Notes: generated by a model from the sequence alone, not told the origin. A stretch of DNA of 64,000 bases from Verrucomicrobiota bacterium (GCA_016931415.1 JAFGEW010000099.1:18522-82521), one strand, 5' to 3'. Counted from the first letter of the stretch, positions 22,137-49,361 are shown. Program-made: numbers and translations.

Positions 22137-23504
22137 TTACCACGACCCGGGGCCTAGCGGCAACACCACCGTGAACGTGCTGCCTTCGCCGGCGACGCTC
22201 TCGACTTCGATGCGACCACCGAGGTCCTGAGCCACTTTCCGGGCGATGCACAGGCCGAGGCCGGTGCCGACAGCTTCGTAGAGGCGCGCATTGGCAGCGC
22301 GGTAGAACTCATCGAAAATCTTCGGCTGGTCCTCGGGTGCGATACCGATGCCGGTGTCTTTGACGGCGATGCGGGCTTCATCGCGTCCGTATTCGGCCGT
22401 GACGGTGACGGTCCCCCCCTCGGGCGTGTACTTGACCGCGTTCTGCACAAGCGAGGCAAAGAGCTGCAGGACTTGGTTGCGTGCGCCCGTGATGCTCGGC
22501 AGGTCGGGGTCGATGTCGGCGGTCAAGGTGACCTCCTTGTGCTGCGCGGCCGTCTGGGCTTCCTCGACGACATCGGCGATGAGCGGCCCGAGGGAGATCG
22601 CTTCGGTTTTCTCGGTATCCGCCATTTCCTTGAGCCGGGTCAGGCTGAGCATGTCGTTGATGAGAGCGAGCATGTGTTGCGACTGAACCTCGGCGCGGCT
22701 CACGAGCTCAGCGGTTTTCTCCGTGTCCTCGACGTAGCCGCCGGTCACCAGCTTGAGAACGGTCTGGATCGACGCGAGCGGCGAACGCAGTTGGTGGCTC
22801 ACGAGGCGGAAGAAGGCGTTACGCTCGCGGTCGAGCTCCTCGAGTCTGCAGTGGGCGAGCTCGACTTCGTGGGCGTGCCCTTCGAGCTGACGGCGCGTCT
22901 CGTCGAGTTCGATCTCACGGCGGCGCAAGCGCCGGGCGATACCGCCGACGAGGACTGAGATCGTTACGAAGGTGATCACGATGACGGCTGCGACCGAGAG
23001 CAGGTAGGTGCGGCTCTCCATCGGATCGGCGGCCCCGGGGTCGAGAGCGGACCAGTGCTGAAGCCAGTGATTGGCCTCGGCGACGCCCATGGCGATCAAG
23101 GCGAGGAAGACCCAGGCGGCGTGCACGAGCATCATGCGCAGGCTCACCAGCAGGCCGCAGATCACCAGGTGGAAGACGAAAAACGGCAGAAACGGGCTCG
23201 TCGGCCCGCCGGTGTAGTGCACCCACACGAGCAAAGCGATGAAATCGGTCGCGATCTGGATGTTGATGAAGCGGTAGACGCGCTGCAGGTCGGGGCGACG
23301 GTCAACGGCCCACCGGGTGCCCACCGACAGAACAACGTTGTAGACGGCGACGAAACCGGCCACCAGGAAAAGCGGCACAGCGGGGTAGGCGAGCCTCAGA
23401 AGCCAGGACAGTGCCGCCCCAACTCCCATGAGCAGAACAACAAACCACCGGACCCGTACCAGCCAGCGGGTCCTGTAGATGAGCTCTTCTTCCCGTGGAA
23501 TCAT
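22137..23504 (-). CDS. membrane-bound sensor histidine kinase (6 TM N-domain, HisKA + HATPase_c)
   Basis: Start at ATG 23504 (MIPREEEL). The H-box is FFRLVSHQLRSPL. N, G1 and G2 boxes read QNAVKYT.., DTGIGI and GTGLGL. It is divergent from the hdr operon. Confidence 0.75.
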   Translation of the reverse strand: MIPREEELIYRTRWLVRVRWFVVLLMGVGAALSWLLRLAYPAVPLFLVAGFVAVYNVVLSVGTRWAVDRRPDLQRVYRFINIQIATDFIALLVWVHYTGGPTSPFLPFFVFHLVICGLLVSLRMMLVHAAWVFLALIAMGVAEANHWLQHWSALDPGAADPMESRTYLLSVAAVIVITFVTISVLVGGIARRLRRREIELDETRRQLEGHAHEVELAHCRLEELDRERNAFFRLVSHQLRSPLASIQTVLKLVTGGYVEDTEKTAELVSRAEVQSQHMLALINDMLSLTRLKEMADTEKTEAISLGPLIADVVEEAQTAAQHKEVTLTADIDPDLPSITGARNQVLQLFASLVQNAVKYTPEGGTVTVTAEYGRDEARIAVKDTGIGIAPEDQPKIFDEFYRAANARLYEAVGTGLGLCIARKVAQDLGGRIEVESVAGEGSTFTVVLPLGPGSW

Positions 23505-23920
23505 CGAACGCCCACACCTGATGCTGGAACACAATAGGCGCTGCCCCAACCCATCGACAAGCGGAATATGCCGTCCATCTCCTGCAGTCAGAGCACAGAG
23601 CCTCCTTCTGATGTTGATCTCTGAGGGCAGAGTATTGCGCCCCCCAATGGGCCATTTCCCGACAATAACCACCTGACATGTAGAGAAATGCGCTTGGGGG
23701 CCGGGCAGCCTAGATGAGACTGCGTCGCGTCTAGCGCTCGTTTTGGGGCTATCTGTGGAGATTTCGTGTTGACGCCTGACGCGGATGTGCCATGATAGCT
23801 GTGAAAGAAATCACACAGCCGCCGTTAGAGTTTTCACGCACCTCTAGACGCACAGCAAGATGGCCGCGCACCTGCCGGACGCGGTCGAAGGTGGCTCGGC
23901 AACCTGTTGGGGGGTCTGCC

Positions 23921-24493
23921 ATGTACGCGCCTGCGGTCAACGAAGCTTTCCTTGCCGAAGTGTCCTCACTCCCTGGCGGCGAACGGATTACGCAATGCAT
24001 CCAATGTGGTTCCTGTTCGGGCAGTTGTCCGACGGCGGCCTGGATGGACCATTCGCCACGCCAGATCTTCGCGTTGATCCGGTGCGGGATGCGCGACGAG
24101 GTGCTCAGTTCGAACACGCCGTGGACCTGTGCCTCCTGCTACACGTGCTACGTGCGGTGCCCCAAGGAGATCAAGATCACCGACATCATGTACGCGCTCA
24201 AACGCTTGTCGATCCGGGAGCACAAAGCGAAGCCGGAGACGAAACCCGCCCGCGTGATGGCCGAGGTTTTTGAGGGCTTGGTCAACAAGCACGGGCGCAA
24301 TTCGGAGTTTCATCTGATGCGGCGGCTGTACGGGCGCCCCTCCGCGATCACCAAGGCGCTACGCAATGCCCCGAGCGGCATGAAGCTCAAGCGCCTCGGC
24401 CGGCTGCCGTTCCGGCAGGAGAAGCTGAGCGCCAATGGCCTTATGCAGATGAAGCAGATCACTGACGCCGTCGAGAAGATGGGCGGTCTCTAG
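23921..24493 (+). CDS. hdrC: heterodisulfide reductase subunit C-like (2x[4Fe-4S] ferredoxin)
   Basis: CIQCGSCSGSCP and CASCYTCYVRCP are the HdrC/SdhC-type cluster motifs. About 190 aa. Confidence 0.75.
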   Translation: MYAPAVNEAFLAEVSSLPGGERITQCIQCGSCSGSCPTAAWMDHSPRQIFALIRCGMRDEVLSSNTPWTCASCYTCYVRCPKEIKITDIMYALKRLSIREHKAKPETKPARVMAEVFEGLVNKHGRNSEFHLMRRLYGRPSAITKALRNAPSGMKLKRLGRLPFRQEKLSANGLMQMKQITDAVEKMGGL

Positions 24494-24602: not shown

Positions 24603-25490
24603 ATGGGACTTGCGTACACCTACTACCCCGGATGCTCGGTCGGCGCCACAAGCCGCTGGTACGACATCTCGCTTCGGGCCGTCGCCAAGGCGCTTGACGT
24701 CGAGCTGGCCGAGCTCGAGGACTGGAACTGCTGCGGCGCCACCGCGTACATGAGCGTGCGCGAGCTCATGAGCTTCTGCATCTCGGCGCGCAACCTCGCG
24801 CTGGCCGAGCCGCTCGGCCGCGACATCGTCACCCCCTGCAACGCCTGCTTCACCGTCCTGCACAAGACCAACCGCTACTGGCACGAGGATGAGACCCTTC
24901 GCGGCAAGGTCAACGAGGCGCTCGCTGCTGCGGGCCTCCACTACAAGGGCACGGTCAAGGTGCGTCACGCGCTCGATCCATTCGTCAACGATGTCGGTCT
25001 CGATGCGATCAGTGAGAAGGTCACGAAGCCACTCGCGGGGCTGAAGGTTGCGGCGTACTACGGGTGCCAGCTCGTGCGGCCCGAGACAGGGCTCGACAGC
25101 CCCGACTACCCTGTGATCCTTGACCAGTTGCTCGCCTCGCTTGGGGCCGAGCCAGTGGACTGGGCCATGAAGGCGCGCTGCTGCGGCGCCTCGCTGATCG
25201 TGAGCCGCGAGGACGTCGCACGCGACCTGATCGCCGACATCCTCAAGTGCGCGGCCGACGCCGGGGCCGAGGCGATCACCACGCTCTGTCCGATGTGCCA
25301 CATCAACCTCGAAACGCAGATGGCCCGTATCAACAAGGACTACGGGTTTGATCTCAACTTCCCCGTGCTGTTCTTCACGCAGTTGATGGGAGTCGCGCTT
25401 GGTGTCGACGAGACCGAACTGGGTCTTGACAAGGGCTTCATCGACGCCCGCCCGCTCCTGACGCGCCACGGCATCGGGGCCAGGGCATAA
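24603..25490 (+). CDS. hdrB: heterodisulfide reductase subunit B-like (two CCG cysteine-rich domains)
   Basis: GGGAGG RBS. YYPGCS..NCCG and YYGCQ..RCCG are two CCG domains typical of the HdrB/GlpC/HdrD catalytic subunit. Confidence 0.8.
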   Translation: MGLAYTYYPGCSVGATSRWYDISLRAVAKALDVELAELEDWNCCGATAYMSVRELMSFCISARNLALAEPLGRDIVTPCNACFTVLHKTNRYWHEDETLRGKVNEALAAAGLHYKGTVKVRHALDPFVNDVGLDAISEKVTKPLAGLKVAAYYGCQLVRPETGLDSPDYPVILDQLLASLGAEPVDWAMKARCCGASLIVSREDVARDLIADILKCAADAGAEAITTLCPMCHINLETQMARINKDYGFDLNFPVLFFTQLMGVALGVDETELGLDKGFIDARPLLTRHGIGARA

Positions 25491-25508: not shown

Positions 25509-26396
25509 ATGACTGACAAACCGGCCTGCCGCATCGGATGCTACATCTGCCATTGCGGCACCAACATCGCGCAGATGGTTGACGTCGCGGCCGTCGCGAA
25601 GTTCGCCGAGGGGGAGGCCAACGTCGTCGTGGCCCGGCACTACAAGTACATGTGCTCGGACCCGGGCCAGGAGATGATCGTCAACGACATCAAGGAGCAG
25701 AAGCTCGACCGGATCGTGGTGGCCTCCTGCTCGCCGCGCATGCACGAGCCGACGTTCCAGGGCGCGTGCCAGCGGGCGGGGCTGAACAAGTACCTGTTCG
25801 AGATGGCCAACATCCGCGAGCACTGCGCGTGGGTGCACGAGGAGCGCGCGGTGGCCACGGAGAAGGCCAAGGCGCTCGTGCGCGCGGCGTTGCGGCGGGT
25901 GGCGTTCCACGAGCCGCTCGAGGACCGCGTTGTGCCGATCCATCCGGACGCCGTGGTCATCGGTGGCGGGATCGCGGGGATCACGGCGGCGCTCAACATC
26001 GCCGACGGCGGTTCGAAGGTCTACCTCGTCGAGCGCGACCCGTCGATTGGCGGTCACATGGGCCAGTTCGACAAGACGTTCCCGACGCTCGATTGCTCGG
26101 CGTGCATCCTGACGCCCAAGATGACGTCGGTGGGCCAGCACCCGAACATCGAGTTGCTCACGTGCGCCGAGGTGACGAACGTCGACGGCTACATTGGCGC
26201 CTTCAAGGTCAAGATCAACAAGAAGGCGCGCTACGTTGACGTCGAGAAGTGTACGGGGTGTGGGGTGTGTTGGACCCTGTGCCCGTCGCGGGCCACACCG
26301 CGGCGCAAGACGATCCGGATCAAGACCAAGTTCGGCGACCAGCTCGTAAGGAGTGCGACGAATGGCAACGGAAGCCGCTCTGAAGACGGACATTGA
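25509..26396 (+). CDS. hdrA: HdrA N-terminal fragment: MvhD-like N-domain + FAD (TrxR-like) domain part 1 + first Cys motif of the inserted ferredoxin domain
   Basis: The CYICHCGTNI, YMCSDPGQ and EMANIREH HdrA N-domain blocks are present. The FAD-binding motif is VVIGGGIAGITAA and LDCSACILTPKM follows. CTGCGVCWTLCP is the first cluster motif. The reading frame then ends, 35 nt inside the next gene. Confidence 0.7.
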   Translation: MTDKPACRIGCYICHCGTNIAQMVDVAAVAKFAEGEANVVVARHYKYMCSDPGQEMIVNDIKEQKLDRIVVASCSPRMHEPTFQGACQRAGLNKYLFEMANIREHCAWVHEERAVATEKAKALVRAALRRVAFHEPLEDRVVPIHPDAVVIGGGIAGITAALNIADGGSKVYLVERDPSIGGHMGQFDKTFPTLDCSACILTPKMTSVGQHPNIELLTCAEVTNVDGYIGAFKVKINKKARYVDVEKCTGCGVCWTLCPSRATPRRKTIRIKTKFGDQLVRSATNGNGSRSEDGH

Positions 26397-26844
26397 TCTG
26401 GCGCCGGCCGAGGCGCTCATTGCCGCGTACATGGACAACCGTGAGGCGACCATTGCCTTGCTCCAGGACGTCCAGAAGCACTACGGCTACCTGCCTCGCC
26501 CGGTGCTCGAGCTGATCTCCGAGCGCCTGAACCTGCCGCACACGCAACTCTTCGCGCTCGCGACGTTCTACCGGGCGTTCAGCCTCAAGCCGCGCGGCCG
26601 CCACCTGATCAACGTCTGCACAGGCACGACGTGCCACGTACGCGGCGCCCCGATGTTGCTCGAGGCCATTGAGCGCGAGTGCAAATGCAAGGCCGGCGGG
26701 ACGACGGCCGACGGCCGGTTTACGATCGAGACGGTGAACTGCGTTGGCGCCTGCGCTTTGGCCCCTGTCATCGTCATTGACGAGGAGGCGCACGGCCGCC
26801 TGACCCAGGCCAAGCTCAAGAAGGTGCTCGACCAGTACAAGTAG
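26362..26844 (+). CDS. NuoE/HoxE/HydC-like thioredoxin-fold [2Fe-2S] subunit
   Basis: AAGGAG RBS 8 nt upstream. Cysteine pattern is C-x4-C...C-x3-C (NVCTGTTCHVRG ... VNCVGACALAP), typical of the 24-kDa NuoE family. Confidence 0.8.
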   Translation: MATEAALKTDIDLAPAEALIAAYMDNREATIALLQDVQKHYGYLPRPVLELISERLNLPHTQLFALATFYRAFSLKPRGRHLINVCTGTTCHVRGAPMLLEAIERECKCKAGGTTADGRFTIETVNCVGACALAPVIVIDEEAHGRLTQAKLKKVLDQYK

Positions 26845-26890: not shown

Positions 26891-28909
26891 ATGAAACTCA
26901 AGGGCCTAGCGGACCTCGACGAAGTCAAGCGAGAGGGCCTCCGCCTGCTCTATCCGGACCGGGTCAAGATTATCGTCGGCACGGCCACGTGCGGCATGGC
27001 CGCCGGCGCGGGCAAGGTTGTCGAGACGTTCCGGCGCGTGATCGACGAGCTGAAGCTCGAGGCGATCGTCGAGGAGACCGGGTGCATCGGCATGTGTCAG
27101 AAGGAGCCGATCGTCACCGTCTACCGGCCGGGCCAGACCAAACTTGTCTACCACTCGATGACGCCTAAGAAGGCCGAGGAACTCGCCCGCCAACTCGCCG
27201 AGGGCAACCCGGGCACGCAGAACGCCCTGGGCCAGATCTTCCGCGAGAAGGCGTTGCTCAGCGGCGAGGAGAGAGTGCTGGGCAAGAACGGCGGCAGCGC
27301 ACCCCTGAGCGAGGCGCCCGACCTTGACGAGATCCCCTTCTATCGCAAGCAGCTCAAGATCGCGCTGCGCAACTGCGGCTATATCGATCCGAACGACATC
27401 CGCCACTCCATCGCGCGCGGCGGCTACTACACGCTCTACAAGGTGCTCACCGAGTGGAAGCCCGACGCCGTCGTCGAGGAAATCACCAAGAGCGGCCTGC
27501 GCGGCCGGGGCGGCGGCGGGTTCCCGACGGGGCGCAAGTGGCGCTCGTGCCGCGACGCGAAAGGCCAGCATCACTACATCATCTGCAACGCCGACGAGGG
27601 TGATCCCGGGGCCTTCATGGATCGCAGCCTGCTCGAGGGCGATCCGCACAGCATGCTCGAGGGGATGATCATCGGCGCCTTCGGCATCGGCGGCGACGAA
27701 GGCTACATCTACGTCCGCAACGAGTATCCCCAGGCGATACGCAAACTCACGCGCGCCCTCGAACAGTGCCACGAATACGGCTTGCTCGGCGACAACATCT
27801 TCGGCACCGAGTTCTCGTTTGACATCACGATCAACCGCGGCGGCGGCGCGTTCGTGTGCGGCGAGTCCACCGCGCTCATGGCGTCGCTCGAAGGGCAGGT
27901 CGGCGAGCCGCGCGCCAAGTACATCCACACCGTCGAGCACGGGTTGCGCGACCAGCCGAGCTGCCTCAACAATGTTGAGACGTGGGCCAACGTGCCTGCC
28001 GTCATGGGCAAGGGCGCCGACTGGTTCACCTCGATCGGCACAGGCGGCAGCAAGGGCACGAAAGTGTTCAGCCTCGTCGGCACGATCCGGACCACGGGCC
28101 TGATCGAGGTGCCGATGGGCATCTCAATCCGCGAGGTGCTCGAGGATATCGGCGGCGGTGTGCGCGAGGGCCACCGGTTCAAAGCCGTGCAGACCGGCGG
28201 CCCTTCGGGCGGCACGATCCTCGTCGACGAACGCGGCGCCACCGTCCGCACCGAGCCCGCGACCGGCGCCTACACGGTCGGCATCATGCCGGAGAGCCTG
28301 CTCGACTTGCCGATCGACTTCGACAGCCTCACCGAGGCCGGCTCGATGATGGGCTCTGGCGGCTTGATCGTGATGGACGAGACGAGCTGCATGGTCGACG
28401 TCGCCCGCTACTTCCTCAGGTTTCTTGCCGAGGAGAGTTGCGGCAAGTGCCTCCCGTGCCGCGAAGGTCTGCGCCAGATGGTCAACATCCTCGACCGCAT
28501 CTGTGAGGGCAAGGGCGAGCACGGCGACATCGAGCTGCTTGAGGAACTCGGCAACGTGGTGATGGACACATCGCTCTGCGCGCTCGGCGGCACGGCGGCC
28601 AACCCGCCGCTGTCGACGATCCGGTATTTCCGCGACGAGTACGAGGCGCACATCTACGACAAGAACTGCCCCGCCGGTGTGTGCAAGGCGCTGATCGCCT
28701 ACGGGGTCAACGCCGAGGCGTGCACGGGTTGCGGCCTGTGCCTGAAGGCGTGTCCGACGGACGCCGTGTTCACACGCAAGCCCAAGGCGGGCGAGAGCAC
28801 GCCGAAGCTGCGCGAGGGCCGCGACCTTCACGACATTTCGCAGGACAAGTGCATCAAGTGCGGGGCCTGTTTCGAAGCCTGCACGTTCGACGCCGTGGTC
28901 AAGGAGTAG
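26891..28909 (+). CDS. NuoF/HydB/HndC-like NAD(P)H-binding FMN flavoprotein with N-terminal thioredoxin-like domain and C-terminal 2x[4Fe-4S] ferredoxin
   Basis: 672 aa. The FMN/NADH site is GRGGGGFPTGRKW. ESCGKCLPCREG is the N3-type cluster motif. The C-terminal ferredoxin motifs are CTGCGLCLKACP and CIKCGACFEAC. Confidence 0.8.
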   Translation: MKLKGLADLDEVKREGLRLLYPDRVKIIVGTATCGMAAGAGKVVETFRRVIDELKLEAIVEETGCIGMCQKEPIVTVYRPGQTKLVYHSMTPKKAEELARQLAEGNPGTQNALGQIFREKALLSGEERVLGKNGGSAPLSEAPDLDEIPFYRKQLKIALRNCGYIDPNDIRHSIARGGYYTLYKVLTEWKPDAVVEEITKSGLRGRGGGGFPTGRKWRSCRDAKGQHHYIICNADEGDPGAFMDRSLLEGDPHSMLEGMIIGAFGIGGDEGYIYVRNEYPQAIRKLTRALEQCHEYGLLGDNIFGTEFSFDITINRGGGAFVCGESTALMASLEGQVGEPRAKYIHTVEHGLRDQPSCLNNVETWANVPAVMGKGADWFTSIGTGGSKGTKVFSLVGTIRTTGLIEVPMGISIREVLEDIGGGVREGHRFKAVQTGGPSGGTILVDERGATVRTEPATGAYTVGIMPESLLDLPIDFDSLTEAGSMMGSGGLIVMDETSCMVDVARYFLRFLAEESCGKCLPCREGLRQMVNILDRICEGKGEHGDIELLEELGNVVMDTSLCALGGTAANPPLSTIRYFRDEYEAHIYDKNCPAGVCKALIAYGVNAEACTGCGLCLKACPTDAVFTRKPKAGESTPKLREGRDLHDISQDKCIKCGACFEACTFDAVVKE

Positions 28910-28913: not shown

Positions 28914-30671
28914 ATGCCTGACGAGACGGTCACATTGACGATCGACGGCAACAAGATCGAGGTCGAGCCGGGCATCTACGTGCTCGAAGCCGCCCAACGG
29001 CTCGGCATCTGGATTCCGACGCTATGCAACTACAAGGGCCTGACACCGTACGGCGCCTGCCGGCTCTGCACGGTCGAGGCGACGAAGGGATCGCGCACTC
29101 GCCTTGTCACCTCGTGCAACTACCCGGTGAGCGACGGCCTTGTCGTGCGCACCGACACCGAGCGTGTGCGCACGGCGCGGCGCATCCTCGTCGAGCTGCT
29201 CTGTGCGCGCCACGGCAAGGTGGGGATCGTCAAAGAGCTTGCCGCCAACGTCGGTGTGACCAAGCCGCGCTTCGGCGAGGGCGACGAGGCGTGTATCCTG
29301 TGCGGCCTGTGCGTCCGCGCGTGTGCCGAAATGGCGCGCGCCTACGCGATCGGGTTCTCGCAGCGCGGTACGGAGAAGATCGTTACCACGCCGTTTGACG
29401 AGCCGAGCGAGGTGTGCATCAACTGCGGTGCCTGCGCCAAGGTCTGCCCGACGGGCGCGATCTATATCGAGGGCGCCGAGGAGATCCGTCACGACGAGCT
29501 CATGCTCGGCCCCGACGCGGCGATCTCGGTGCCGACGATGCAGGCGGTGCCCAACGTGCCCGCGCTCGACGCGACACGCTGCCTTCACTTCCAGCGCGAC
29601 GGGTGCGGCATCTGCGCGCCCAACTGCCCGGCGAACGCGATCGACTACTCGATGCAGGACGAGGAGATCGAGGTTGAGTGCGGCACGATGGTCGTCGCCA
29701 CCGGCTTCCAGACCTTCGACCCCAGTCCGATGGAGCAGTACGGCTACGGCCGCTTCCCGAACGTGATCACGTCGCTCGAGTTCGAGCGGCTCTCGAACGC
29801 GGCGGGCCCGACGGGCGGCGAGATTGTGCTGCGCAACGGCGAGCGGCCGAAGTCGGTTGCCATCCTGCACTGCATCGGCAGCCGCGACGAGCACTACCAC
29901 AAGTACTGCTCGCGGGTGTGCTGCATGTACTCGCTCAAGTTCGCCCACCTCGTGCGCGAGAAGGTCGGCGCTCGGGTCTACGAGCTCTACATCGACATGC
30001 GCAGCTTCGGCAAAGGCTACGAGGAGTTCTACGACCGGCTGCTCCAGGAGGGGGCGCTGTTCATCCGGGGCAAAGGCGCCGAGGTGACCGACTTCGCCAT
30101 GCGGCCCGAGGAGGAAGGCAAGCTCATCGTCAAGTGCGAGGATACGCTCGCCGGCGTGCAGCGCCGCCTCCCGGTCGACATGGTGATCCTGTCGGTGGCG
30201 CTCGAGGCGCGTAGCGACTCGAAGCAGGTCGAGCGCCTCTTCAAGTTGTGCGCGAGCGAGGACGGCTTCTTCCTTGAGCGGCATCCGAAGCTCGCGCCCG
30301 TCGAGACGACGAGCGACGGCGTGTTCCTTGCGGGCTGTTGCCAAAGCCCGAAGGACATCCCGGACACCGTGGCCCAGGGCAGCGCGGCGGCGGCGCAGGC
30401 CTTGAGCCTCATCCTGCGCGGCGAAACCACGTTGAGCGGCGCGCATGCCGAGATCAACCCCGAGCTGTGCAGCGGCTGCCGCATCTGCAACGAGCTGTGC
30501 CCGTACAACGCCATCACGTATGACGCCGAGAAGAAGGTGAGCGAGGTCAATGCGAGCCTGTGCAAGGCGTGCGGGACGTGCGTGGCGGCGTGTCCGAGCG
30601 GGGCGATCAAGGGCAAGCACTTCACGAAGCAGCAGATCCTTGCCGAGCTGGAAGGAGTGTTGGCGAAATGA
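28914..30671 (+). CDS. hdrA: fusion protein: NuoG/HoxU/HydA-N-like Fe-S domain (2Fe-2S + 2x4Fe-4S) fused to HdrA C-terminal part (inserted-ferredoxin second motif, TrxR-like FAD domain part 2, C-terminal 2x[4Fe-4S] ferredoxin)
   Basis: The N-terminal 2Fe-2S pattern is LCNYKGLTPYGACRLC..C, followed by CILCGLCVRAC and CINCGACAKVCP. HdrA-specific blocks follow: CLHFQRDGCGICAPNCP, MVVATGFQTFDP, CSRVCCMYSLK, VFLAGCCQSPKDIPDTVAQGSAAA. The C-terminal motifs are CSGCRICNELCP and CKACGTCVAACP. Confidence 0.75.
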   Translation: MPDETVTLTIDGNKIEVEPGIYVLEAAQRLGIWIPTLCNYKGLTPYGACRLCTVEATKGSRTRLVTSCNYPVSDGLVVRTDTERVRTARRILVELLCARHGKVGIVKELAANVGVTKPRFGEGDEACILCGLCVRACAEMARAYAIGFSQRGTEKIVTTPFDEPSEVCINCGACAKVCPTGAIYIEGAEEIRHDELMLGPDAAISVPTMQAVPNVPALDATRCLHFQRDGCGICAPNCPANAIDYSMQDEEIEVECGTMVVATGFQTFDPSPMEQYGYGRFPNVITSLEFERLSNAAGPTGGEIVLRNGERPKSVAILHCIGSRDEHYHKYCSRVCCMYSLKFAHLVREKVGARVYELYIDMRSFGKGYEEFYDRLLQEGALFIRGKGAEVTDFAMRPEEEGKLIVKCEDTLAGVQRRLPVDMVILSVALEARSDSKQVERLFKLCASEDGFFLERHPKLAPVETTSDGVFLAGCCQSPKDIPDTVAQGSAAAAQALSLILRGETTLSGAHAEINPELCSGCRICNELCPYNAITYDAEKKVSEVNASLCKACGTCVAACPSGAIKGKHFTKQQILAELEGVLAK

Positions 30672-31132
30672 GCAAGTTCGAACCGGTCATCGTCGGCTTT
30701 CTGTGCAACTGGTGCAGCTACACGGGCGCGGACCTTGCCGGCACGGCCCGCCGGCACTACCTGCCCAACCTGCGCATCATCCGCGTCATGTGCAGCGGGC
30801 GCGTCGAGCCGGGTTTTGTCGTCCAGGCGCTGCAGGACGGGGCCGACGGCGTGCTCGTGGCGGGATGCCATCCCGGCGACTGCCACTATATCGAGGGCAA
30901 CTACAAGACGCTGCGCCGCATGACGCTGCTCAAGAAGATGCTCGAGCAGTTCGGCATCGAGCCTGAGCGGGTGCGGCTCGAATGGATCAGCGCGAGCGAG
31001 GCGAACGACTTCGTCCGGGTCGTCAACGAGATGACCGAGGAGATTCGGGCGCTCGGGCCGCTCAAGCTCGGCCACTTCGAGGACGCTGCCGACGCCGAGC
31101 ACGCCGGGAAAGAAGCGGCCACGCCCGCATAG
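30668..31132 (+). CDS. mvhD: methyl-viologen-reducing hydrogenase delta subunit (MvhD/FlpD family)
   Basis: VGFLCNWCSY..MCSGRVEP..AGCHPGDCHY are the MvhD signature motifs. The ATG overlaps the upstream stop (ATGA). Confidence 0.8.
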   Translation: MSKFEPVIVGFLCNWCSYTGADLAGTARRHYLPNLRIIRVMCSGRVEPGFVVQALQDGADGVLVAGCHPGDCHYIEGNYKTLRRMTLLKKMLEQFGIEPERVRLEWISASEANDFVRVVNEMTEEIRALGPLKLGHFEDAADAEHAGKEAATPA

Positions 31133-31156: not shown

Positions 31157-32152
31157 GTGGGCAAGCCCAAAGTCGCCTTCTACTGGTGCGCCAGTTGCGG
31201 CGGGTGCGAGGAAGCGGTCGTCGATCTGGCCGAGGATATCCTCAAGGTCGTCGATGCCGTTGACATCGTGCTCTGGCCCGTGGCGCTCGACTTCAAGCTC
31301 AAGGACGTCAAGGCGATGAAGGACGGCGAGATTGCCGTAAGCTTCATCAACGGGGCGGTGCGCACCGAGGAGCAGGAGGAGTGGGTCAAGCTGCTGCGCA
31401 GGAAGTCGGGGTTGGTCGTGGCCTTCGGCGCGTGCGCGCACCTAGGCGGCGTGCCCGGGCTGGCGAACTTCTTTGACCGCAAGGCGATCTTCGATCGCGC
31501 CTACGACAAGGTTCCGAGCGCCGACAACCCGAACAAGACCCGGCCGCAGACGAGGACCGAGGTGCCCGAGGGCGTGCTCACGCTGCCCGCCTTCTTCAAC
31601 ACGGTGCGGACGCTCGACCAGGTCATTGACGTGGATTATTACCTGCCCGGCTGCGCGCCGCCGCCGGACCTGATCATGGGAGCCGTCACGGCGATCCTCA
31701 AAGGCGAGCTGCCGCCCAAGGGCACGGTACTCGCTCCGACGAAGGCGCTGTGCGACACCTGTCCGCTCAAGGAATCGAAACCCGAGAAGATGCTCATCCA
31801 CGAGTTCAAACGCGTGGCGACGAGTACGCCGGACCCGACGGTGTGCTATCTCGCGCAAGGCTACGTCTGTCTCGGCCCGGCGACCCGCTCGGGCTGCGGC
31901 GAACGCTGCATCAACGCCAACATGACGTGCCGCGGCTGCTTCGGGCCGACGCCCGAAGCCATTGACCTGGGCGTGAAGGCCCTGTCGGCCATGGCGTCCA
32001 TCCTCGACACGAATGATGCCGACGAGATCACGCGGATCATGGATACCATGCCCGACCCGGCCGGCGTCTTCTACATGTACTGCTTGCCCTCGTCCGTGCT
32101 GCGGCGTCGCAAGGTGGAAGCCATTCCGAGAACGGAGAGCGCTCATGTCTAA
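31157..32152 (+). CDS. mvhG: [NiFe] hydrogenase small subunit, group 3c (MvhG-like)
   Basis: GTG start with a GAGGAG RBS. The N-terminal proximal-cluster cysteines are KVAFYWCASCGGCEE. Multiple distal-cluster cysteines follow (CDTCP, CLGPATRSGCGERCINANMTCRGCFGP). Confidence 0.8.
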   Translation: MGKPKVAFYWCASCGGCEEAVVDLAEDILKVVDAVDIVLWPVALDFKLKDVKAMKDGEIAVSFINGAVRTEEQEEWVKLLRRKSGLVVAFGACAHLGGVPGLANFFDRKAIFDRAYDKVPSADNPNKTRPQTRTEVPEGVLTLPAFFNTVRTLDQVIDVDYYLPGCAPPPDLIMGAVTAILKGELPPKGTVLAPTKALCDTCPLKESKPEKMLIHEFKRVATSTPDPTVCYLAQGYVCLGPATRSGCGERCINANMTCRGCFGPTPEAIDLGVKALSAMASILDTNDADEITRIMDTMPDPAGVFYMYCLPSSVLRRRKVEAIPRTESAHV

Positions 32153-33605
32153 GCAGATCACCATTGACCCGATCACGCGGCTCGAGGGCCACGGCAAGAT
32201 CGAGATATTCCTCGACGATGCAGGCAACGTGGCCAACGCCTACCTGCAGATTCCCGAGCTGCGCGGGTTCGAGCAGTTCGCCGTCGGCCGGCTCGTCGAG
32301 GAGATGCCGCGCATTACCCCGAAGATCTGCGGCGTGTGCCCGACGACGCACCACATGTGTTCGGGCAAGACCGTTGACGCCGTGTATCACGTCGACCCGC
32401 CGGTGCCGGCCAAGAAGATCCGCGAGCTGATCAACTCAGCGTTCATGTTCGAGGACCACACGCTGCACTTCTACTTCCTCGGCGGGCCGGACTTCGTCAT
32501 GGGGCCCGATGCGCCGGCGGCGACGCGCAACATCCTCGGCGTCATCGGTAAGGTGGGGCTCGAGATCGCGGGCCAGGTCATCGCCATCCGTCGCCGCACG
32601 CGCAAGGTGATCAGCGACCTCGGCGGACGCGTCATCCACCCGGTGTGCAACGTGCCGGGCGGTGTCTCGAAGGGGGTCACCAAGGAGCTGCAGGAAGAGT
32701 ACATCCAGACCGCGAAGGACGCCGTCGAGTTCGCCAGGTTCTCGCTCAAGCTCTTCGACGACGTCGTGCTGGCGAACAAGGGTTACGTCGACGTCATCGT
32801 CGGCGACGTCTACAAGCACCAGACCTACTACATGGGCCTGGTGGACAAAAACAACAAGGTCAGCTTCTACGACGGCGACGTGCGGGTCGTGACGCCGACG
32901 GGCGAGCAGTTCGCCAAGTTCAAGCCGAACGAGTATCTCGACCATATCGCCGAGCACGTCGAGCCGTGGAGCTACATCAAGTTCCCGTTCCTCAAGAAGG
33001 TCGGCTGGAAGGGCTTCGTCGACGGCAAGGACAGCGGTGTCTACCGCGTTGCGCCGCTCGCGCGGCTCAACGCGTCCGACGGTATGGCCACGCCCCAGGC
33101 GCAGGAGGCGTACGAGAAGATGTTCTCGGTCCTCGGCGGCAAGCCGGCGCACAACACGCTTGCCTACCACTGGGCGCGCCTCGTCGAGCTGCTCTACGCG
33201 GCCGAGCGTCTCCTCGAGCTGGCGCAAGATCCTGACATTCTCGATCCGAACATCCGCACGGTGCCGACCGAGACACCGTCCGAGGGCGTAGCTGTCGTCG
33301 AGGCGCCGCGTGGCACGCTCTATCACCACTACAAGACCGACGAGCGCGGCGTCGTGCAGGAAGCCAACCTCATCGTCGCGACGGTGAACAACTCGGCGGC
33401 GATCGCCATGTCGGTCGCGCGCGCCGCAAAGGGGCTCATCAAGAACGGCAAGGTCAACGACGGTCTGCTCAACATGGTCGAGATGGCCTTCCGCGCCTAT
33501 GACCCCTGCATGGCGTGCGCCACACACGCTTTGGGCAAGACGCCGCTCATTGTCACGCTGCGCGATCCGAGCGGCGACGCGATCCAAGTGCTGCGCCGCG
33601 ACTGA
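32145..33605 (+). CDS. mvhA: [NiFe] hydrogenase large subunit, group 3c (MvhA-like)
   Basis: RLEGHGKI and RICGVCPTTHH (L1 Ni ligands) are present. The C-terminal motif DPCMACATH is followed by a ~25-aa cleavable tail. The ATG overlaps the mvhG stop by 8 nt. Confidence 0.85.
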   Translation: MSKQITIDPITRLEGHGKIEIFLDDAGNVANAYLQIPELRGFEQFAVGRLVEEMPRITPKICGVCPTTHHMCSGKTVDAVYHVDPPVPAKKIRELINSAFMFEDHTLHFYFLGGPDFVMGPDAPAATRNILGVIGKVGLEIAGQVIAIRRRTRKVISDLGGRVIHPVCNVPGGVSKGVTKELQEEYIQTAKDAVEFARFSLKLFDDVVLANKGYVDVIVGDVYKHQTYYMGLVDKNNKVSFYDGDVRVVTPTGEQFAKFKPNEYLDHIAEHVEPWSYIKFPFLKKVGWKGFVDGKDSGVYRVAPLARLNASDGMATPQAQEAYEKMFSVLGGKPAHNTLAYHWARLVELLYAAERLLELAQDPDILDPNIRTVPTETPSEGVAVVEAPRGTLYHHYKTDERGVVQEANLIVATVNNSAAIAMSVARAAKGLIKNGKVNDGLLNMVEMAFRAYDPCMACATHALGKTPLIVTLRDPSGDAIQVLRRD

Positions 33606-33629: not shown

Positions 33630-33669
33630 CCGCCCTGTGCCCGTCCGAGGGGTGCAGGGCGGCTTTTCC
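33630..33669 (+). terminator. putative intrinsic terminator after the hdr-mvh operon
   Basis: Stem CCGCCCTG ... CAGGGCGG with a structured 17-nt loop, followed by CTTTTCC, a weak T-tract. Confidence 0.45.
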
Positions 33670-33769: not shown

Positions 33770-34354
33770 ATGTGGTCTCGGCTGGTTCGTGTGGGTCTGC
33801 TTGCAGTGGTTGTTCTGGTCACACCTGCCTGCGCCGCCTTGGTTCGGCGGGCGGCGGCATTCTCCCCCTTGCTCGCCCATGGCGAAGGCGGCGAAGACGG
33901 CTTGGTGGAGATGCTCGGCGAGCAGCACGTTGCCGTCATTCATTTCCCGATTGCGCTCACCATTGCAGCCGCGCTGGCGGAGCTGCTCGCCCTCATCACG
34001 CGGCGGCCTGCGTTCACGCACGCGGCTCGCTTCTGCATCGTGATCGCGGCGCTCGGCGCCATCGCCGCCGTCATCACCGGCTGGATCGCGTTCGGGGAGG
34101 AAACCGAAGGCATGACGGCAGCAGCTATGAAGTCGAATCCCCTGACCCGGAATCTTCTGATCCATCGTTCGCTCGGTATTGCGGCGGCCATCGTGATCGT
34201 GGCAGGGGCCGTTCTGTCCGAGGTTGGCCACATCGGCCGGAACAAGTGGGTGATGCTGGCATCCCGGATCGCCTTGCTCGCGGCCGTTGTCCTCGTAGTT
34301 CTTACAGGCTACTACGGTGGGAAATATGTGTTCCCCGAAATGCCACCGGCTTAG
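33770..34354 (+). CDS. hypothetical polytopic membrane protein (4-5 TM) at the head of the copper-efflux cluster
   Basis: 194 aa with a hydrophobic profile and conserved His residues. No recognisable motif. Confidence 0.5.
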   Translation: MWSRLVRVGLLAVVVLVTPACAALVRRAAAFSPLLAHGEGGEDGLVEMLGEQHVAVIHFPIALTIAAALAELLALITRRPAFTHAARFCIVIAALGAIAAVITGWIAFGEETEGMTAAAMKSNPLTRNLLIHRSLGIAAAIVIVAGAVLSEVGHIGRNKWVMLASRIALLAAVVLVVLTGYYGGKYVFPEMPPA

Positions 34355-35762
34355 CAGACGTGCCACGACCGTGCTTCGTGCTGTTGTGCTCGCCTTGATC
34401 GCGGTTGGCGGATCGTCGTGCGCAGGCCGGCGGGAGACGCTGTCTGACGGAAGGCCGGTGCCCGCGAACGGCCCGATGCCGGCGTCGCCGATATCGGCGC
34501 CGGCCATGTTGCCCGACGAGCCGACGATTGATGACTACATCGCCTACGCGGAGCAGAACAACCCAGCGATACGTGCCGCGCGGGAGCGGTGGCATGCGGC
34601 GCTGGAACGCGTCCGGCAGGCGCGCTCGCTGCCTGACCCGAGGCTGAGTTTCGGCGAGTTCGTCGAGTCGGTCGAGACGCGCGTCGGGCCGCAGGAGTGG
34701 AACGCGACGTTGTCGCAAACCTTCCCCTGGTTTGGCACGCTCGGGCTGCGCGGCGACGCTGCCCGCTCTGGCGCCGCGATGGCCGCACAACAGGTCGAGG
34801 CGCTGCGCCTCAAGATCATCTACCAACTCAAACACGACTACTACGAGTACTACTACCTCGCCCGTGCCGTCGGCGTGAGCGAGGAGAACGTGCAGCTTGT
34901 CGCCGATCTCGAGGAGGTCGCCCGCACCGCCTACGCTGCGGGCCGGGTGCCGCAAGCGGCGGTGATCAAGGCCCAGGTCGAGCTCGAGAAGCTCCGCGAC
35001 CGCCTCCGCACACTTAGCGAGCAACGCATTCCCGTCGCAGCCAAGATCAACGCTCTCCTCGGGCGGGAAGCCGATGCGCCGCTGCCGTGGCCGCAGGTAT
35101 TGCCCGACGATGACGAAATCCTGCCGGCCGCTGAACTCCTCAACCAGCTCCGTACAGCGAACCCCGAACTCCGTGCCCTGGCCCATGCGGCGAACAGGGC
35201 GAGCCGCGCCGAGGCACTCGCGCGCAAGGCGCGCTACCCCGACCTGACGCTCGGCGTCACCTACGTCTCGACCGGTGACGCCGTCATGCCCAACGTCGCC
35301 GGCAGCGGCAAGGACCCCGTCATGGTCATGTTGTCGGTCAACCTGCCCGTCTGGGGCGGCAGGAACCGCGCCGTCATCCGCGAGGCCCGGGCGCAGCTCG
35401 AGTCGGCCATCGCCGAACGCGGCGACCGCGAGAACATGCTGGTCGCCGAGCTCGAGATGGCGCTGTTCAAGTACAACGACGCGGTGCGCAAGATCACCCT
35501 GTACCGCGACACGCTGGTTCCCCAGGCCAAGCAGAGCCTCAACGTGACCCAGCAGGCTTTCACGGCCGGCACGGTGGCCTTCCTTGACCTGATCGACGCC
35601 CAACGCACGCTGCTCGAGATCCAGCTCATGGCCGAACGGGCGCTCGTGGACCGCGCTCAGCAGCGCGCCGCACTCGATATGCTGACCGGGCGCGGGCTGT
35701 CGAATGGCGCGGGAAACACTGCGGTCGGGAATCAACTTGGTGCTGATGGTGTTGAGAAATGA
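34317..35762 (+). CDS. cusC: outer-membrane efflux factor (TolC/CusC/CzcC family), lipoprotein
   Basis: The signal peptide plus lipobox reads LIAVGGSSC. Two repeats of the OEP domain with coiled-coil alpha-helical content are present. It sits upstream of the cusBA-like genes. Confidence 0.75.
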   Translation: MGNMCSPKCHRLSRRATTVLRAVVLALIAVGGSSCAGRRETLSDGRPVPANGPMPASPISAPAMLPDEPTIDDYIAYAEQNNPAIRAARERWHAALERVRQARSLPDPRLSFGEFVESVETRVGPQEWNATLSQTFPWFGTLGLRGDAARSGAAMAAQQVEALRLKIIYQLKHDYYEYYYLARAVGVSEENVQLVADLEEVARTAYAAGRVPQAAVIKAQVELEKLRDRLRTLSEQRIPVAAKINALLGREADAPLPWPQVLPDDDEILPAAELLNQLRTANPELRALAHAANRASRAEALARKARYPDLTLGVTYVSTGDAVMPNVAGSGKDPVMVMLSVNLPVWGGRNRAVIREARAQLESAIAERGDRENMLVAELEMALFKYNDAVRKITLYRDTLVPQAKQSLNVTQQAFTAGTVAFLDLIDAQRTLLEIQLMAERALVDRAQQRAALDMLTGRGLSNGAGNTAVGNQLGADGVEK

Positions 35763-35818
35763 ATGGACTCATCGTGAATGTACACACGCGATCAGCACCC
35801 AGGCCGAGGAGAGTGCTC

Positions 35819-36625
35819 ATGAAGACCATGTTCGCCGCGCTTGTCGCCGCGGCCCTTATAGGCATTGTCGTGACGCCTGCGTTCCCCGAAGGCGAGGCCG
35901 AGGTCAGAGGGCAGACAATCTGCCCAGTCATGGGCGGCGTCGTCGACAAGCAGTACTTCGCCGACCACAACGGGAAGCGTGTCTACTTCTGCTGCCCGGC
36001 GTGCGCGCCCGAGTTCGCCAAAGATCCGGAGAAGTACATCAAGAAGCTCGAAGACGAAGGCATCACGCTCGATCAGACGCCGGACGATGGCCAGGGCGCC
36101 GATGAGGCGGCAGGCCACACCGGGCAAGTCTGGATATGTTCCATGCACGCGCAGGTCGAGCAGCCAGAGGCGGGCAATTGCCCCATGTGTGGCATGGACT
36201 TGGTCTTGCGCGAGGCCGAGGGAACGACCGAGACTGTCACGACGCAGACAGCCTGCCCCAATTCGGGCAAGCCGATTAACAAGAACCACTTCGCCGACTA
36301 CAACGGGAAGCGCGTCTACTTCTGCGGTCCCGGCTGCGTCAAGGCCTTCAAGGCCGATCCCGAGCCGTACATGAAGAGGCTCGCCGACGCCGGCGTCGTA
36401 CTCGAAGATGCGCCCAGGGAAGTGAAAACGCAGACGATGTGCCCCGTGCTGACGAACCAGAAGATCAACAAGAGCATCTTCGCTGACCACGAGGGCAAGC
36501 GCGTCTACTTCTGCTGCCGCAGTTGCCAGCGCGCGTTCGGGAAGAACCCAGCCAAGTACGTGAAGCAGCTCGAGGACCAGGGCATCACGCTCGAGCGTGT
36601 GTCCCAGACCTCCCACTCGCACTGA
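35819..36625 (+). CDS. periplasmic metal-binding protein with three YHS/TRASH-like domains and one CusB-type heavy-metal-binding (HMBD, C-x-M-H...C-P-x-C-G-M) domain
   Basis: Signal peptide present. The unit (I/M)CPV..G..(V/I)(D/N)K..FADHNGKRVYFC(C/G)..C...F..(D/N)P..Y(I/M)K(K/R)L occurs three times. VWICSMHAQVEQPEAGNCPMCGMDLV, the HMBD, sits in the middle. Confidence 0.65.
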   Translation: MKTMFAALVAAALIGIVVTPAFPEGEAEVRGQTICPVMGGVVDKQYFADHNGKRVYFCCPACAPEFAKDPEKYIKKLEDEGITLDQTPDDGQGADEAAGHTGQVWICSMHAQVEQPEAGNCPMCGMDLVLREAEGTTETVTTQTACPNSGKPINKNHFADYNGKRVYFCGPGCVKAFKADPEPYMKRLADAGVVLEDAPREVKTQTMCPVLTNQKINKSIFADHEGKRVYFCCRSCQRAFGKNPAKYVKQLEDQGITLERVSQTSHSH

Positions 36626-36806
36626 CAGCACCCGGGCTGCGGGTGACCTCGCGCCTGCGGCGCGGATGTGGGAGGAGGAGGGCCTGAGTGACGATTGTGA
36701 GGCGACGCGACGGGCCCGGACAGACAGCGCGGGTGATGGCGCCGGCGGAGACGCCCCGCTACGGTGTGCTAGCCTCCTGTCCGAGTGGCGCCGAGGTGGT
36801 GACGAG

Positions 36807-47136: not shown

Positions 47137-47138
47137 GA

Positions 47139-47996: not shown

Positions 47997-48048
47997 GTCG
48001 TCATCTCCTTGGCTTCAATGATACGTCCGCGTGTCAACCATGTTCCAG

Positions 48049-49254: not shown

Positions 49255-49361
49255 TTTCTCCTCCTCAACAGGCGTTTGTGCGTTTTGCAGGAGCGGCTGG
49301 TGTCCACCCTGGGCACGGCATACTCCGCCCTCCATCTTGGCGGGGAACTTACAGCGGGCGT

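Follow-up and report, generated by a model that had tools for sequence, protein, structure and literature searches.

A BfuA-HdrA fusion protein and a split hdrA gene with nested bfu genes in a predicted Mvh-Hdr hydrogenase operon of a Verrucomicrobiota bacterium

Introduction

Flavin-based electron bifurcation is the source of low-potential electrons in strict anaerobes. HdrA-type and Bfu-type enzymes represent two of the four known mechanistic classes of bifurcation. A combination of HdrA and Bfu modules has become visible only recently and so far in one enzyme, class II benzoyl-CoA reductase (BCRII). Here, an operon is described in which the genes for both modules are interlaced. It is located on a stretch of 64,000 nucleotides from a Verrucomicrobiota bacterium (GCA_016931415.1 JAFGEW010000099.1:18522-82521), which is termed the window below, and it centres on the gene at 28914..30671 on the plus strand. 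The encoded 585 aa protein is, with high confidence as to its architecture, an in-frame fusion of the N-terminal part of BfuA with the C-terminal part of HdrA, that is, an iron-sulfur adapter or bridging subunit.

In canonical Hdr, HdrC/HdrB receive the high-potential electron from the flavin-domain cluster, and the low-potential electron goes via the inserted ferredoxin domain to ferredoxin or a polyferredoxin (PMC13518236, PMC9012536). In the solved Hdr complexes, low-potential electrons leave the flavin adenine dinucleotide (FAD) through the inserted ferredoxin domain (PMC13518236; PMC9012536; bioRxiv 10.64898/2026.04.10.717634). The inlet of these complexes is formed by MvhD together with the C-terminal ferredoxin domain. 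All group 3c hydrogenases characterized to date oxidize H2 (PMC11216029). In Type-2 Bfu enzymes, electrons pass from A4 via A2 and A1 to B1 and the flavin mononucleotide (FMN) (PMC12318220).

The fusion protein

The 585-codon frame is open throughout, and its translation contains no stop. With a G+C content at third codon positions (GC3) of 0.88, the gene is typical of real genes in the window, whose overall G+C content is 65%. The protein corresponds exactly to NCBI MBN1918747.1, a '4Fe-4S binding protein' from a Verrucomicrobiota metagenome-assembled genome (MAG). In phmmer searches against the PDB, residues 5-188 resemble the N-termini of BfuA, HoxU and HydA (9mqx_A, E 8e-37; 8a6t_A, 9e-38; 5xf9_B, 8e-18), and residues 156/167-583 match solved HdrA proteins (8rvu_a 242-653, E 5e-108; 5odc_A 245-650, E 3e-107). 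NCBIfam finds HoxU at the N-terminus (E 1e-38) and HdrA2 (E 1e-130) and HdrA (E 2e-106) at residues 166-584. The similarity to HdrA is far above chance. An earlier note on this DNA had proposed an in-frame chimera of a HoxU/NuoG-type iron-sulfur domain and the C-terminal part of HdrA, and Pfam, phmmer and NCBIfam bear this out. It had also considered that HdrA similarity might be absent from residues ~230-585 or that a frameshift might separate the two halves. The HdrA match of E 5e-108 includes this region, and both halves share one frame, the fused ~585 aa architecture recurring at 99-100% coverage in all 120 homologue clusters listed (57-93% identity). All 28 cluster cysteines as well as K342 and E291 are invariant in 120-121 aligned sequences, down to 57% identity.

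Residues 1-187, whose coding region (28914..29474, +) ends at 29474, constitute a BfuA-type N-terminal domain according to Pfam, phmmer and Foldseek, with predicted local distance difference test (pLDDT) values of 81-96. They comprise a [2Fe-2S] domain (Pfam Fer2_4, residues 4-82, E 1e-18) with the A1 ligands C38, C49, C52 and C68 and a Fer4 dicluster (Fer4_7, 2x[4Fe-4S], residues 127-182), whose ferredoxin-like motifs A (C127-137) and B (C168-178) correspond to clusters A2/A4. Residues 188-245 (29475..29648, +) were assigned by alignment to HdrA and contain invariant cysteines. They comprise the loop of the HdrA inserted ferredoxin domain, which reads ..LGP..AISVPxMQAVPNVP.., and a motif designated C (C223-x7-C231-x2-C234-x3-C238-P). 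Motif C has the same C-x7-C-x2-C-x3-C form as motif 2 of bacterial canonical HdrA. By alignment and invariant columns, residues 246-505 (29649..30428, +) are the second part of the thioredoxin reductase (TrxR)-like flavin domain of HdrA. Its [4Fe-4S] ligands C320/C332/C336/C337 are equivalent to C386/C399/C403/C404 of 5odc_A and invariant in 120 sequences. Lys342, the equivalent of the flavin N5 lysine K409 of 5odc_A, is invariant, too, and so is E291. A lysine at flavin N5 is a mark of Hdr-type bifurcating flavins (bioRxiv 10.64898/2026.04.10.717634). Residues 506-585 and the stop codon (30429..30671, +) form the HdrA C-terminal 2x[4Fe-4S] ferredoxin domain, as seen in Pfam (second Fer4 dicluster, residues 513-566) and in the alignment to HdrA 568-650. 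Its cysteines at C519-529 and C550-560 are all invariant.

This C-terminal ferredoxin had been recognized in the earlier note. The same holds for the NuoG/HoxU/HydA-like character of the first ~180 aa, seen in the alignment of residues 5-188 and specified here as Type-2 BfuA, and for three HdrA-specific blocks, all of which are present: MVVATGFQTFDP at residues 259-270, CSRVCCMYSLKFAHL at 332-346 and GVFLAGCCQSPKD at 469-497. The switch to HdrA had been placed too far downstream, at about residue 230. It lies at ~188, straight after the second BfuA ferredoxin motif, as residues 188-245 already are HdrA loop and motif.

A His-Cys3 [4Fe-4S] motif (A3/N5; H-x3-C-x2-C-x5-C) was not found in the fusion. 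Residues 95-120 read LLCARHGKVGIV, and position 100 is a Cys in 85 and a His in 13 of 121 aligned sequences. Since the His-ligated A3 is absent, the N-terminal part is grouped with Type-2 BfuA (PMC9304861, PMC12318220). Besides A3, the fusion lacks the BfuA C-terminal domain. Its HoxU score in NCBIfam is 133 at a cut-off of 333. Using Foldseek, the AlphaFold2 model of the N-terminal part was superposed on WorA (9mqx_A) with a template modelling (TM) score of 0.70 and a root-mean-square deviation of 2.3 Å over 190 columns (40% identity). This suggests that motifs A and B pair with each other as in BfuA. A 'HoxU fusion' in the narrow sense was rejected, because the N-terminal part has no His-ligated cluster and is nearer to WorA-type BfuA than to the HoxU encoded in the window. 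The latter contains the His-Cys3 motif (HFCMFCEKSGNC; Pfam NADH-G_4Fe-4S_3) and is 34% identical to the N-terminal part of the fusion.

From the HdrA part, two elements are missing: neither the GxGxxG FAD segment (no Pyr_redox/FAD match in Pfam) nor the N-terminal four-Cys [4Fe-4S] domain was found in the fusion, and the latter sits on the upstream 295 aa protein. The HdrA matches cover profile positions 240-650 only and remain below the NCBIfam cut-offs (HdrA2, 437 vs. 1100 bits; HdrA, 356 vs. 1400). The fusion is a full member of neither the HdrA nor the BfuA family. When modelled alone with AlphaFold2, it has a mean pLDDT of 82.5 and a predicted TM score of 0.58. The BfuA part and the TrxR core are confident. 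Low values at the junction with motif C (block means 53-82) and in the FAD-contacting segment 450-510 (54-68) are as expected of a half-domain without its partner.

The split hdrA gene

The N-terminal half of HdrA (HdrA-N, 295 aa) is encoded at 25509..26396 (+), as found by alignment to 5odc_A and by Pfam FAD_oxidored/Pyr_redox_2. Its residues 8-260 align to HdrA 5-258 of 5odc_A (E 4e-100). It contains the N-terminal [4Fe-4S] domain, the FAD Rossmann GxGxxG, a CxxC pair, motif 1 of the inserted ferredoxin domain (designated motif N) and a short conserved tail. The glycine motif reads G152-G-G154-I-A-G157, and the TLDCxxC pair includes the 'Cys197'-type ligand discussed previously (PMC9012536). 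In an alignment of 28 sequences from the window and 27 other loci, C14, C16, C49, C74, G152/G154/G157, C196/C199 and C248/251/254/258 are kept in 96-100%.

The two HdrA pieces cover residues 5-258 and 245-650 of 5odc_A and overlap only in the generic Cys motif. BfuA-only homologues match the fusion as far as ...CxxCGACAxxCPTGAIxIE and then diverge; the fusion runs on with the HdrA loop. As judged from these alignments, the break in hdrA is clean: motif 1 of the inserted ferredoxin domain falls on one side and the loop on the other, nothing is duplicated or lost, and the two pieces jointly carry everything of canonical HdrA. The bfuC-bfuB-bfuA genes (nuoE/nuoF/hoxU-like) are nested in the gap. 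Since GxGxxG resides on HdrA-N and the remainder on the fusion, FAD binding would need both proteins. Similarly, motif 1 (C248/251/254/258) of the inserted ferredoxin domain is located on HdrA-N and motif 2 (C223/231/234/238) on the fusion, so that this domain is predicted to be assembled in trans from two chains. A duplicated HdrA motif 1, to which HMMER had aligned motif B, was rejected by comparison with BfuA-only proteins and bacterial HdrA. The fusion had previously been regarded as the defining novelty of the operon. The chimera is real, but HdrA-N (25509-26396) had gone unmentioned, and the novelty consists in a split hdrA with nested bfuCBA and not in the fusion alone. Furthermore, this architecture is not unique to the window but widespread in MAGs.

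The Bfu module

bfuC (26362..26844, +), whose start was assigned by its ribosome binding site (RBS), encodes a NuoE-like thioredoxin-like [2Fe-2S] protein of 160 aa (Pfam 2Fe-2S_thioredx, E 1e-49) and shares 35 nt with the 3' end of hdrA-N. bfuB (26891..28909, +) encodes a NuoF-like protein of 672 aa for FMN and nicotinamide adenine dinucleotide (NAD(H)), which was assigned to the bifurcating type by its PDB matches and ligand sets. That a NuoF-like flavoprotein gene adjoins the fusion in one operon had been stated before and is correct. The best PDB matches of BfuB are all bifurcating HydB/NfnB proteins (7t2r_B, E 4e-194; 9bov_B, 7q4v_B, 8a6t_B). BfuB contains the B1 ligands C517/520/523/563, all five ligands of the B2 site including the diagnostic His (C500, C538, H587, C593, C598) and a C-terminal 2x[4Fe-4S] (B3/B4) ferredoxin domain at 611-621 and 654-664. 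Judged by the criteria for bifurcating BfuB (PMC9304861), these features identify the NuoF-like partner as bifurcating-type BfuB and not as a plain diaphorase. The Bfu core is predicted to use a third substrate for reducing NAD+ and ferredoxin in a coupled reaction.

The operon

Nine genes, all on the plus strand, are arranged in the order hdrC-hdrB-hdrA(N)-bfuC-bfuB-bfuA::hdrA(C)-mvhD-mvhG-mvhA. They are translationally coupled, with overlaps or gaps of 4-70 nt. The hdrC-like gene (23921..24493, +) encodes a 2x[4Fe-4S] protein of ~190 aa (Pfam Fer4_8/Fer4_17). Its likely start, ATG 23921 within the open reading frame 23792-24493, was deduced from the RBS and a 190 aa orthologue in locus L002. 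A sigma-70-like promoter candidate upstream of hdrC (23769..23796, +; TTGACG-16-CATGAT, 9/12 consensus matches) is weak, with 2 sites found vs. 1.2 expected. hdrB (24603..25490, +) encodes a protein of 295 aa with two CCG domains (Pfam CCG x2, E 7.5e-28), which is near full length compared to solved HdrB (8rvv_B 6-276, E 2e-57; 9sfi_C 4-290) and has both CCG/CxxC Cys sets complete. An AOR-type gene (tungsten BamB/BamC) was not found in the operon by Pfam, and the distal Cys set of HdrB is complete, unlike that of BamD.

Downstream of the fusion, mvhD (30668..31132, +) encodes the [2Fe-2S] adaptor of 154 aa (Pfam FlpD, E 1e-56; 5odc_D, E 6e-51). Its ATG overlaps the stop codon of the fusion gene (ATGA). 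It is followed by genes for an MvhG-like [NiFe]-hydrogenase small subunit (31157..32152, +; Pfam Oxidored_q6; NCBIfam VhuG, E 1e-59) and an MvhA-like large subunit of 486 aa (32145..33605, +; NCBIfam VhuA, E 1e-127). VhuA and VhuG are the best NCBIfam matches of MvhA and MvhG, both under the equivalog cut-offs. MvhA contains the motifs RLEGHG, CGVCP and DPCMACATH, and its PDB matches are 7t2r_D (2e-119), Vhu/Mvh proteins (1e-117 to 6e-113) and Hox proteins (4e-94). By subunit type, motifs and the presence of MvhD and HdrABC in the cluster, the hydrogenase can be classified as group 3c (Mvh/Vhu type, Hdr-linked). An intrinsic-terminator-like hairpin (33630..33662, +) with a 13-bp stem, 10 of them GC, and a T run closes the operon.

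Relatives and natural fusions

A genome scan with an alignment of fusion residues 1-262 as query yielded at least 600 pattern matches, at least 472 of which encode relatives. Among the best 80 species genomes listed, 33 contain a window-type fusion and 28 a ~1090 aa protein termed 'Type II'. Hosts among the matches listed comprise Zixibacteria, Ignavibacteria, Armatimonadota, Acidobacteriota, Chloroflexota, Desulfobacterota, Spirochaetota, Planctomycetota, Verrucomicrobiota and some archaea. In a search of 50%-identity representatives, which mixes canonical and tandem HdrA with fusions, at least 12 or so of the top 150 clearly span BfuA and HdrA.

Thirty-two loci have enough upstream DNA. In 28 of them, a gene for HdrA-N only is located upstream on the same strand, either directly before nuoE (20 loci) or separated from it by a ~3.7-kb cassette (8 loci); the other four have no HdrA-N nearby. 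In 18 loci, NuoE/BfuC bears the FAD part of HdrA and motif N as an in-frame N-terminal extension, and the Cys motif is never lost. In the BCRII structure, the N-terminal bundle of BfuC touches BfuA (bioRxiv 10.64898/2026.04.10.717634). Fusions and contact together suggest that the Bfu trimer reaches the HdrA inserted ferredoxin domain with both of its ends. In terms of topology, BfuC-B-A appears as an insertion into this domain. HdrA-N synteny, HdrA-N::NuoE fusions, coupled genes and the terminator after mvhA argue that the pieces belong together.

Full N-terminal halves of HdrA fused in frame to NuoE/BfuC (432-464 aa) are found at L061 6825-8120, L064 6627-8018 and L068 6763-8076. These loci are from Spirochaetales, Planctomycetota and Zixibacteria genomes, and their fusions are 'Rosetta-stone' links of HdrA-N to the Bfu module. 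The ~3.7-kb cassette between hdrA-N and nuoE is present at L022 3472-7315 and L038 3531-7225 and also in L024, L026, L037, L040, L049 and L058. L022 is the locus analysed with Pfam, and its cassette has genes for DRTGG proteins, HATPase-type kinases, a PHP-domain protein and a HydS-like sensory [FeFe]-hydrogenase (Fe_hyd_lg_C + FeS). Such a sensory cassette is typical of bifurcating/confurcating HydABC operons. This suggests a HydABC-type operon as the source of the nested Bfu genes, along with its H2-sensing regulator.

The Type II relatives occur mainly in Desulfobacterales (L019, L023, L025, L027-L030, L032, L034-L036, L042, L043, L045 etc.; match at ~10001 in each). In their ~1090 aa protein, BfuA is combined with the second half of a TrxR-like unit and with a complete HdrA. 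NuoE (~300 aa) carries the corresponding FAD part 1 as a fusion, and a hydrogenase is usually absent from these loci. Type II resembles a fusion of the BamI-BamE type that has been split in the same manner. Another arrangement is found in Dehalococcoidia (L006 3504-17008). There, HdrA-N and NuoE are accompanied by a NuoF of 1045 aa that includes a GltD/NfnB-like domain, and by the fusion. Behind these, in place of the hydrogenase, come MvhD, a molybdopterin FdhA-like gene and a further, complete HdrABC. L048 and L058 have a NuoF of ~1030-1050 aa, too. A rough neighbour-joining tree, computed from distances over 277 aa with midpoint rooting and no support values, places the HdrA-C part as the sister of methanogen HdrA. 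This tree suggests more than one fusion lineage, which is not to be relied on.

Proposed electron flow and alternatives

As low-potential electrons exit through the inserted ferredoxin domain, the locus is best read as encoding a hydrogenase of the Mvh-Hdr type in which a Bfu NAD(H)/ferredoxin core is supplied by the low-potential arm. The fusion probably bridges a nine-gene complex of HdrC, HdrB, HdrA-N, BfuC, BfuB, BfuA::HdrA-C, MvhD, MvhG and MvhA, and the wiring set out below is proposed with moderate confidence. The two HdrA pieces would reassemble into one FAD-binding HdrA, and motif N of HdrA-N and motif C of the fusion would rebuild the inserted ferredoxin domain across two chains. From there, the BfuA clusters A4/A2/A1 would carry on directly to B1 and FMN of BfuB. 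Electrons from H2 would enter via MvhAG and MvhD and reach the HdrA-FAD. One electron would be transferred to HdrC/HdrB and a disulfide, the other one through the split ferredoxin domain and BfuA to BfuBC, where NAD+ and ferredoxin would be reduced. A built-in second bifurcating (Bfu) module would replace the soluble-ferredoxin/polyferredoxin acceptor of methanogen Mvh-Hdr. Half of the electrons would end up on the disulfide, a quarter on NAD+ and a quarter on ferredoxin, with a mean acceptor potential above that of canonical Mvh-Hdr. By our estimate from standard potentials, the reaction would be exergonic at lower H2 pressure and would supply NADH and reduced ferredoxin. The direction of the flow is more tentative than the wiring. 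A 'double-bifurcation' hydrogenase, in which the low-potential electron of HdrA passes through a ferredoxin domain of two polypeptides to the FMN/Fe-S site of Bfu and which couples H2, disulfide, NAD(H) and ferredoxin, is a real possibility, if somewhat short of an even chance. The earlier note had viewed the junction as the point where electrons enter the FAD from the FMN. The wire itself is plausible. Its direction would more likely be the reverse, from FAD towards the FMN module, because the junction lies in the inserted ferredoxin domain, i.e. the exit, and the entry arm is taken by the Mvh hydrogenase.

Several points weigh against this proposal. For all family members the support consists of sequence data, and the best 80 of the homologues listed in the genome scan all come from uncultured organisms (MAG, single-cell and uncultured-isolate assemblies). 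The ferredoxin domain in trans and the distance from A4 to the HdrA cluster are deduced from chain connectivity. The N-terminal Trx-like (B5) domain of BfuB, residues 1-110, has only three Cys (C34, C65, C69); NiFe-HydB (7t2r_B) has four in this domain and 9bov_B three, as here. The B2 site is occupied by Zn and not by an Fe-S cluster in several of the solved Bfu enzymes (PMC12318220). In BCRII, the only solved enzyme with Bfu and HdrA, Bfu feeds the input arm of HdrA and not the inserted ferredoxin domain (bioRxiv 10.64898/2026.04.10.717634). Feeding low-potential electrons into a module that normally receives mid-potential ones looks energetically wasteful and leaves room for a confurcating direction.

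The same complex and wire could also work in reverse: BfuBC would confurcate electrons from NADH and reduced ferredoxin through BfuA and the split ferredoxin domain to the HdrA FAD and on to the hydrogenase (H2 evolution) and/or HdrBC. This would make it an NADH/ferredoxin-dependent, H2-evolving, redox-balancing enzyme of fermenters. Such a flow is in line with the confurcation mode of BamGHI (bioRxiv 10.64898/2026.04.10.717634), the reversibility of Bfu enzymes (PMC9304861), the reversible NiFe-HydABCSL (7t2r_D) as best solved relative of MvhA and the many hosts in fermentative lineages. The HydS-like cassette of eight related loci, of a kind typical of confurcating HydABC operons, fits as well. 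Yet all solved Hdr complexes release low-potential electrons through the inserted ferredoxin domain, and the group 3c enzymes characterized so far oxidize H2 (PMC11216029). Moreover, H2 production from electrons of ~-400 mV needs neither the HdrA flavin nor HdrBC, and both are strictly conserved. Reverse operation is therefore considered unlikely, though worth keeping in view. The cysteine motifs, too, can be combined differently. Motifs B and C of the fusion might form the HdrA inserted ferredoxin domain in cis and BfuA motif A might pair in trans with motif N, in which case the inter-subunit domain would be that of BfuA. HMMER indeed aligns motif B to HdrA motif 1 and on through the loop, and the spacing from B to C resembles that between HdrA motifs 1 and 2. 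However, motif B with its flank (CGACAxxCPTGAIxIE) is BfuA-specific and common to BfuA-only proteins, and HdrA-N keeps an HdrA-type motif (CTGCGxC) on the same short strand as canonical HdrA. As residues 1-190 of the AlphaFold2 model superpose on WorA at 2.3 Å, motifs A and B should pair in cis. The alternative pairing is quite improbable.

A flavin-free role of the fusion has to be considered, too, since the fusion alone has no GxGxxG, BamE contains a structural, non-bifurcating FAD unit (bioRxiv 10.64898/2026.04.10.717634) and HdrA-N is absent nearby in 4 of the 32 loci. The HdrA part would then be a scaffold which only links MvhD/Mvh to BfuABC, in a manner similar to NiFe-HydABCSL and comparable to the non-bifurcating TrxR2 unit of BamE, and HdrA-N and HdrBC would act separately. 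A scaffold does not account for two exactly complementary HdrA pieces, for the invariant K342 and flavin-domain residues or for intact HdrB and HdrC; in addition, 28 of the 32 loci encode HdrA-N alongside the fusion, and 18 loci have a NuoE fused to the FAD part of HdrA. The chance that it applies is very small. An assembly artefact, a frameshift or a decaying pseudogene is practically negligible: the same length and architecture with invariant ligands in 120 independent clusters and dozens of genomes and a GC3 of 0.88 speak against it. Nothing was found in its favour, and conservation across homologues led to its rejection.

Genomic neighbourhood

A PilS-like histidine kinase with six transmembrane segments is encoded at 22137-23672 (-), divergently from the operon. 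A histidine kinase is found at the same position in an 83%-identical MAG labelled Planctomycetes (L001/L002), so it may regulate the operon. The window also contains a canonical Hox-type operon for a second, NAD-linked hydrogenase, HoxFUYH, at 3398-7954 (+), with HoxU at 5213-5932 and HoxH at 6374-7954. HoxF is a fusion of NuoE and NuoF with 604 aa and without a C-terminal ferredoxin domain. From the Hox operon and the nine-gene operon it follows that the organism should have both a non-bifurcating NAD-hydrogenase and an Hdr-Bfu-Mvh complex. Directly downstream of the nine genes, a CusC/CusF-like/CusB/CusA-type heavy-metal efflux system is encoded at 34317-43020 (+), comprising OEP, a YHS/HMBD protein, HlyD_D23 with HMBD and a 1396 aa ACR_tran protein. 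This system has no connection with the hydrogenase operon. The regions 44613-52031 (-) and 56467-62248 (+) encode a phosphate-type ABC transporter (PBP_like_2, BPD_transp_1), a PAS/HAMP histidine kinase and an OmpR-type regulator and, further along, an Omp85/TamA-TamB pair, an ordinary housekeeping context of a Gram-negative (diderm) bacterium.

Significance

A full-text literature search, which did not extend to the HdrA-module review of Appel et al. 2021, revealed no description of an Mvh-Hdr operon in which HdrA is split and NuoEFG/Bfu genes are nested. Such clusters are just labelled 'MvhADG/HdrABC' or 'NuoEFG homologs next to Hox/Mvh' in several genome papers. Apparently, the locus represents a conserved, as yet undescribed combination of two known bifurcating modules. 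If the proposed electron flow is true, it would be a second and different coupling of both modules, via the low-potential arm, and both a flavoprotein and a ferredoxin domain would each be made from two gene products. Many of the 'group 3c MvhADG/HdrABC' hydrogenases in metagenomic surveys might then be NAD(H)-linked. This would alter models of H2, NADH and ferredoxin pools in anoxic ecosystems. In addition, the natural fusion and fission variants define subunit contacts for structural work.

Comparison with known systems

In NiFe-HydABCSL (7T2R) and HoxEFUYH (5XF9; also the Hox operon of the window), a NuoE/F/G-like module is joined to a group 3 [NiFe] hydrogenase as in the operon described here, and 7T2R contains the best solved relatives of its BfuB and MvhA. 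In contrast, those enzymes are devoid of HdrA, HdrBC and MvhD. The His-ligated cluster by which HydA/HoxU contact the small subunit is absent from the fusion. With the Type-2 Bfu enzymes (WorABCSL, 9MQX; PMC9304861, PMC12318220), the module shares A1, A2 and A4 without A3, the presence of BfuC, and a BfuB with B1, the B2-site ligands, the C-terminal 2x[4Fe-4S] and the N-terminal Trx-like domain, so that an A4-A2-A1 path is expected. The 'third substrate' module is, however, an HdrA flavoprotein fused to the BfuA C-terminus and not a separate subunit on an adaptor helix. The combination of BfuA and HdrA is not in the text of the published Bfu classification, and one supplement was searched without finding an Hdr/Mvh term.

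In HdrA9-11 of anaerobic methanotrophic archaea (ANME-1), a second NAD(P)H-linked flavin module, an NfnB-like insertion, interrupts the same inserted ferredoxin domain (PMC9012536). It was proposed that two bifurcation sites result from it (PMC9012536). There, a single NfnB-like domain of 500 aa is part of one polypeptide, whereas here a three-subunit Bfu module is involved and hdrA is distributed over two genes. MvhADG-HdrABC and Vhu-Hdr(-Fwd) of methanogens (5ODC, 9SW2-6; PMC13518236) have their HdrB, HdrC, MvhD, MvhG and MvhA counterparts in the operon. The two HdrA pieces cover residues 5-650 of methanogen HdrA and keep all cluster ligands, the Cys197-type CxxC, the FAD site and K409. In contrast to methanogen HdrA, they are separate polypeptides. 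The break lies in the inserted ferredoxin domain, which continues covalently into a BfuA domain, and BfuBC is encoded in the gap. Furthermore, no polyferredoxin, Fwd or soluble-ferredoxin outlet is implied, and the hosts are bacteria without coenzyme M/coenzyme B.

Class II benzoyl-CoA reductase, Bam(BC)2DEFGHI, is the sole characterized enzyme with Bfu (BamGHI), an HdrA-type protein (BamE) and an MvhD-like adaptor (bioRxiv 10.64898/2026.04.10.717634). Tungsten BamB/C genes are missing from the operon described here, and HdrBC is intact in place of BamD with its degenerate distal cluster. In BCRII, electrons pass from BamI to the input arm, formed by the C-terminal ferredoxin domain/BamF, and BamBC is reached through the inserted ferredoxin domain. 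Here, the input arm bears the hydrogenase, and the inserted ferredoxin domain, i.e. the opposite arm, is where Bfu is attached.

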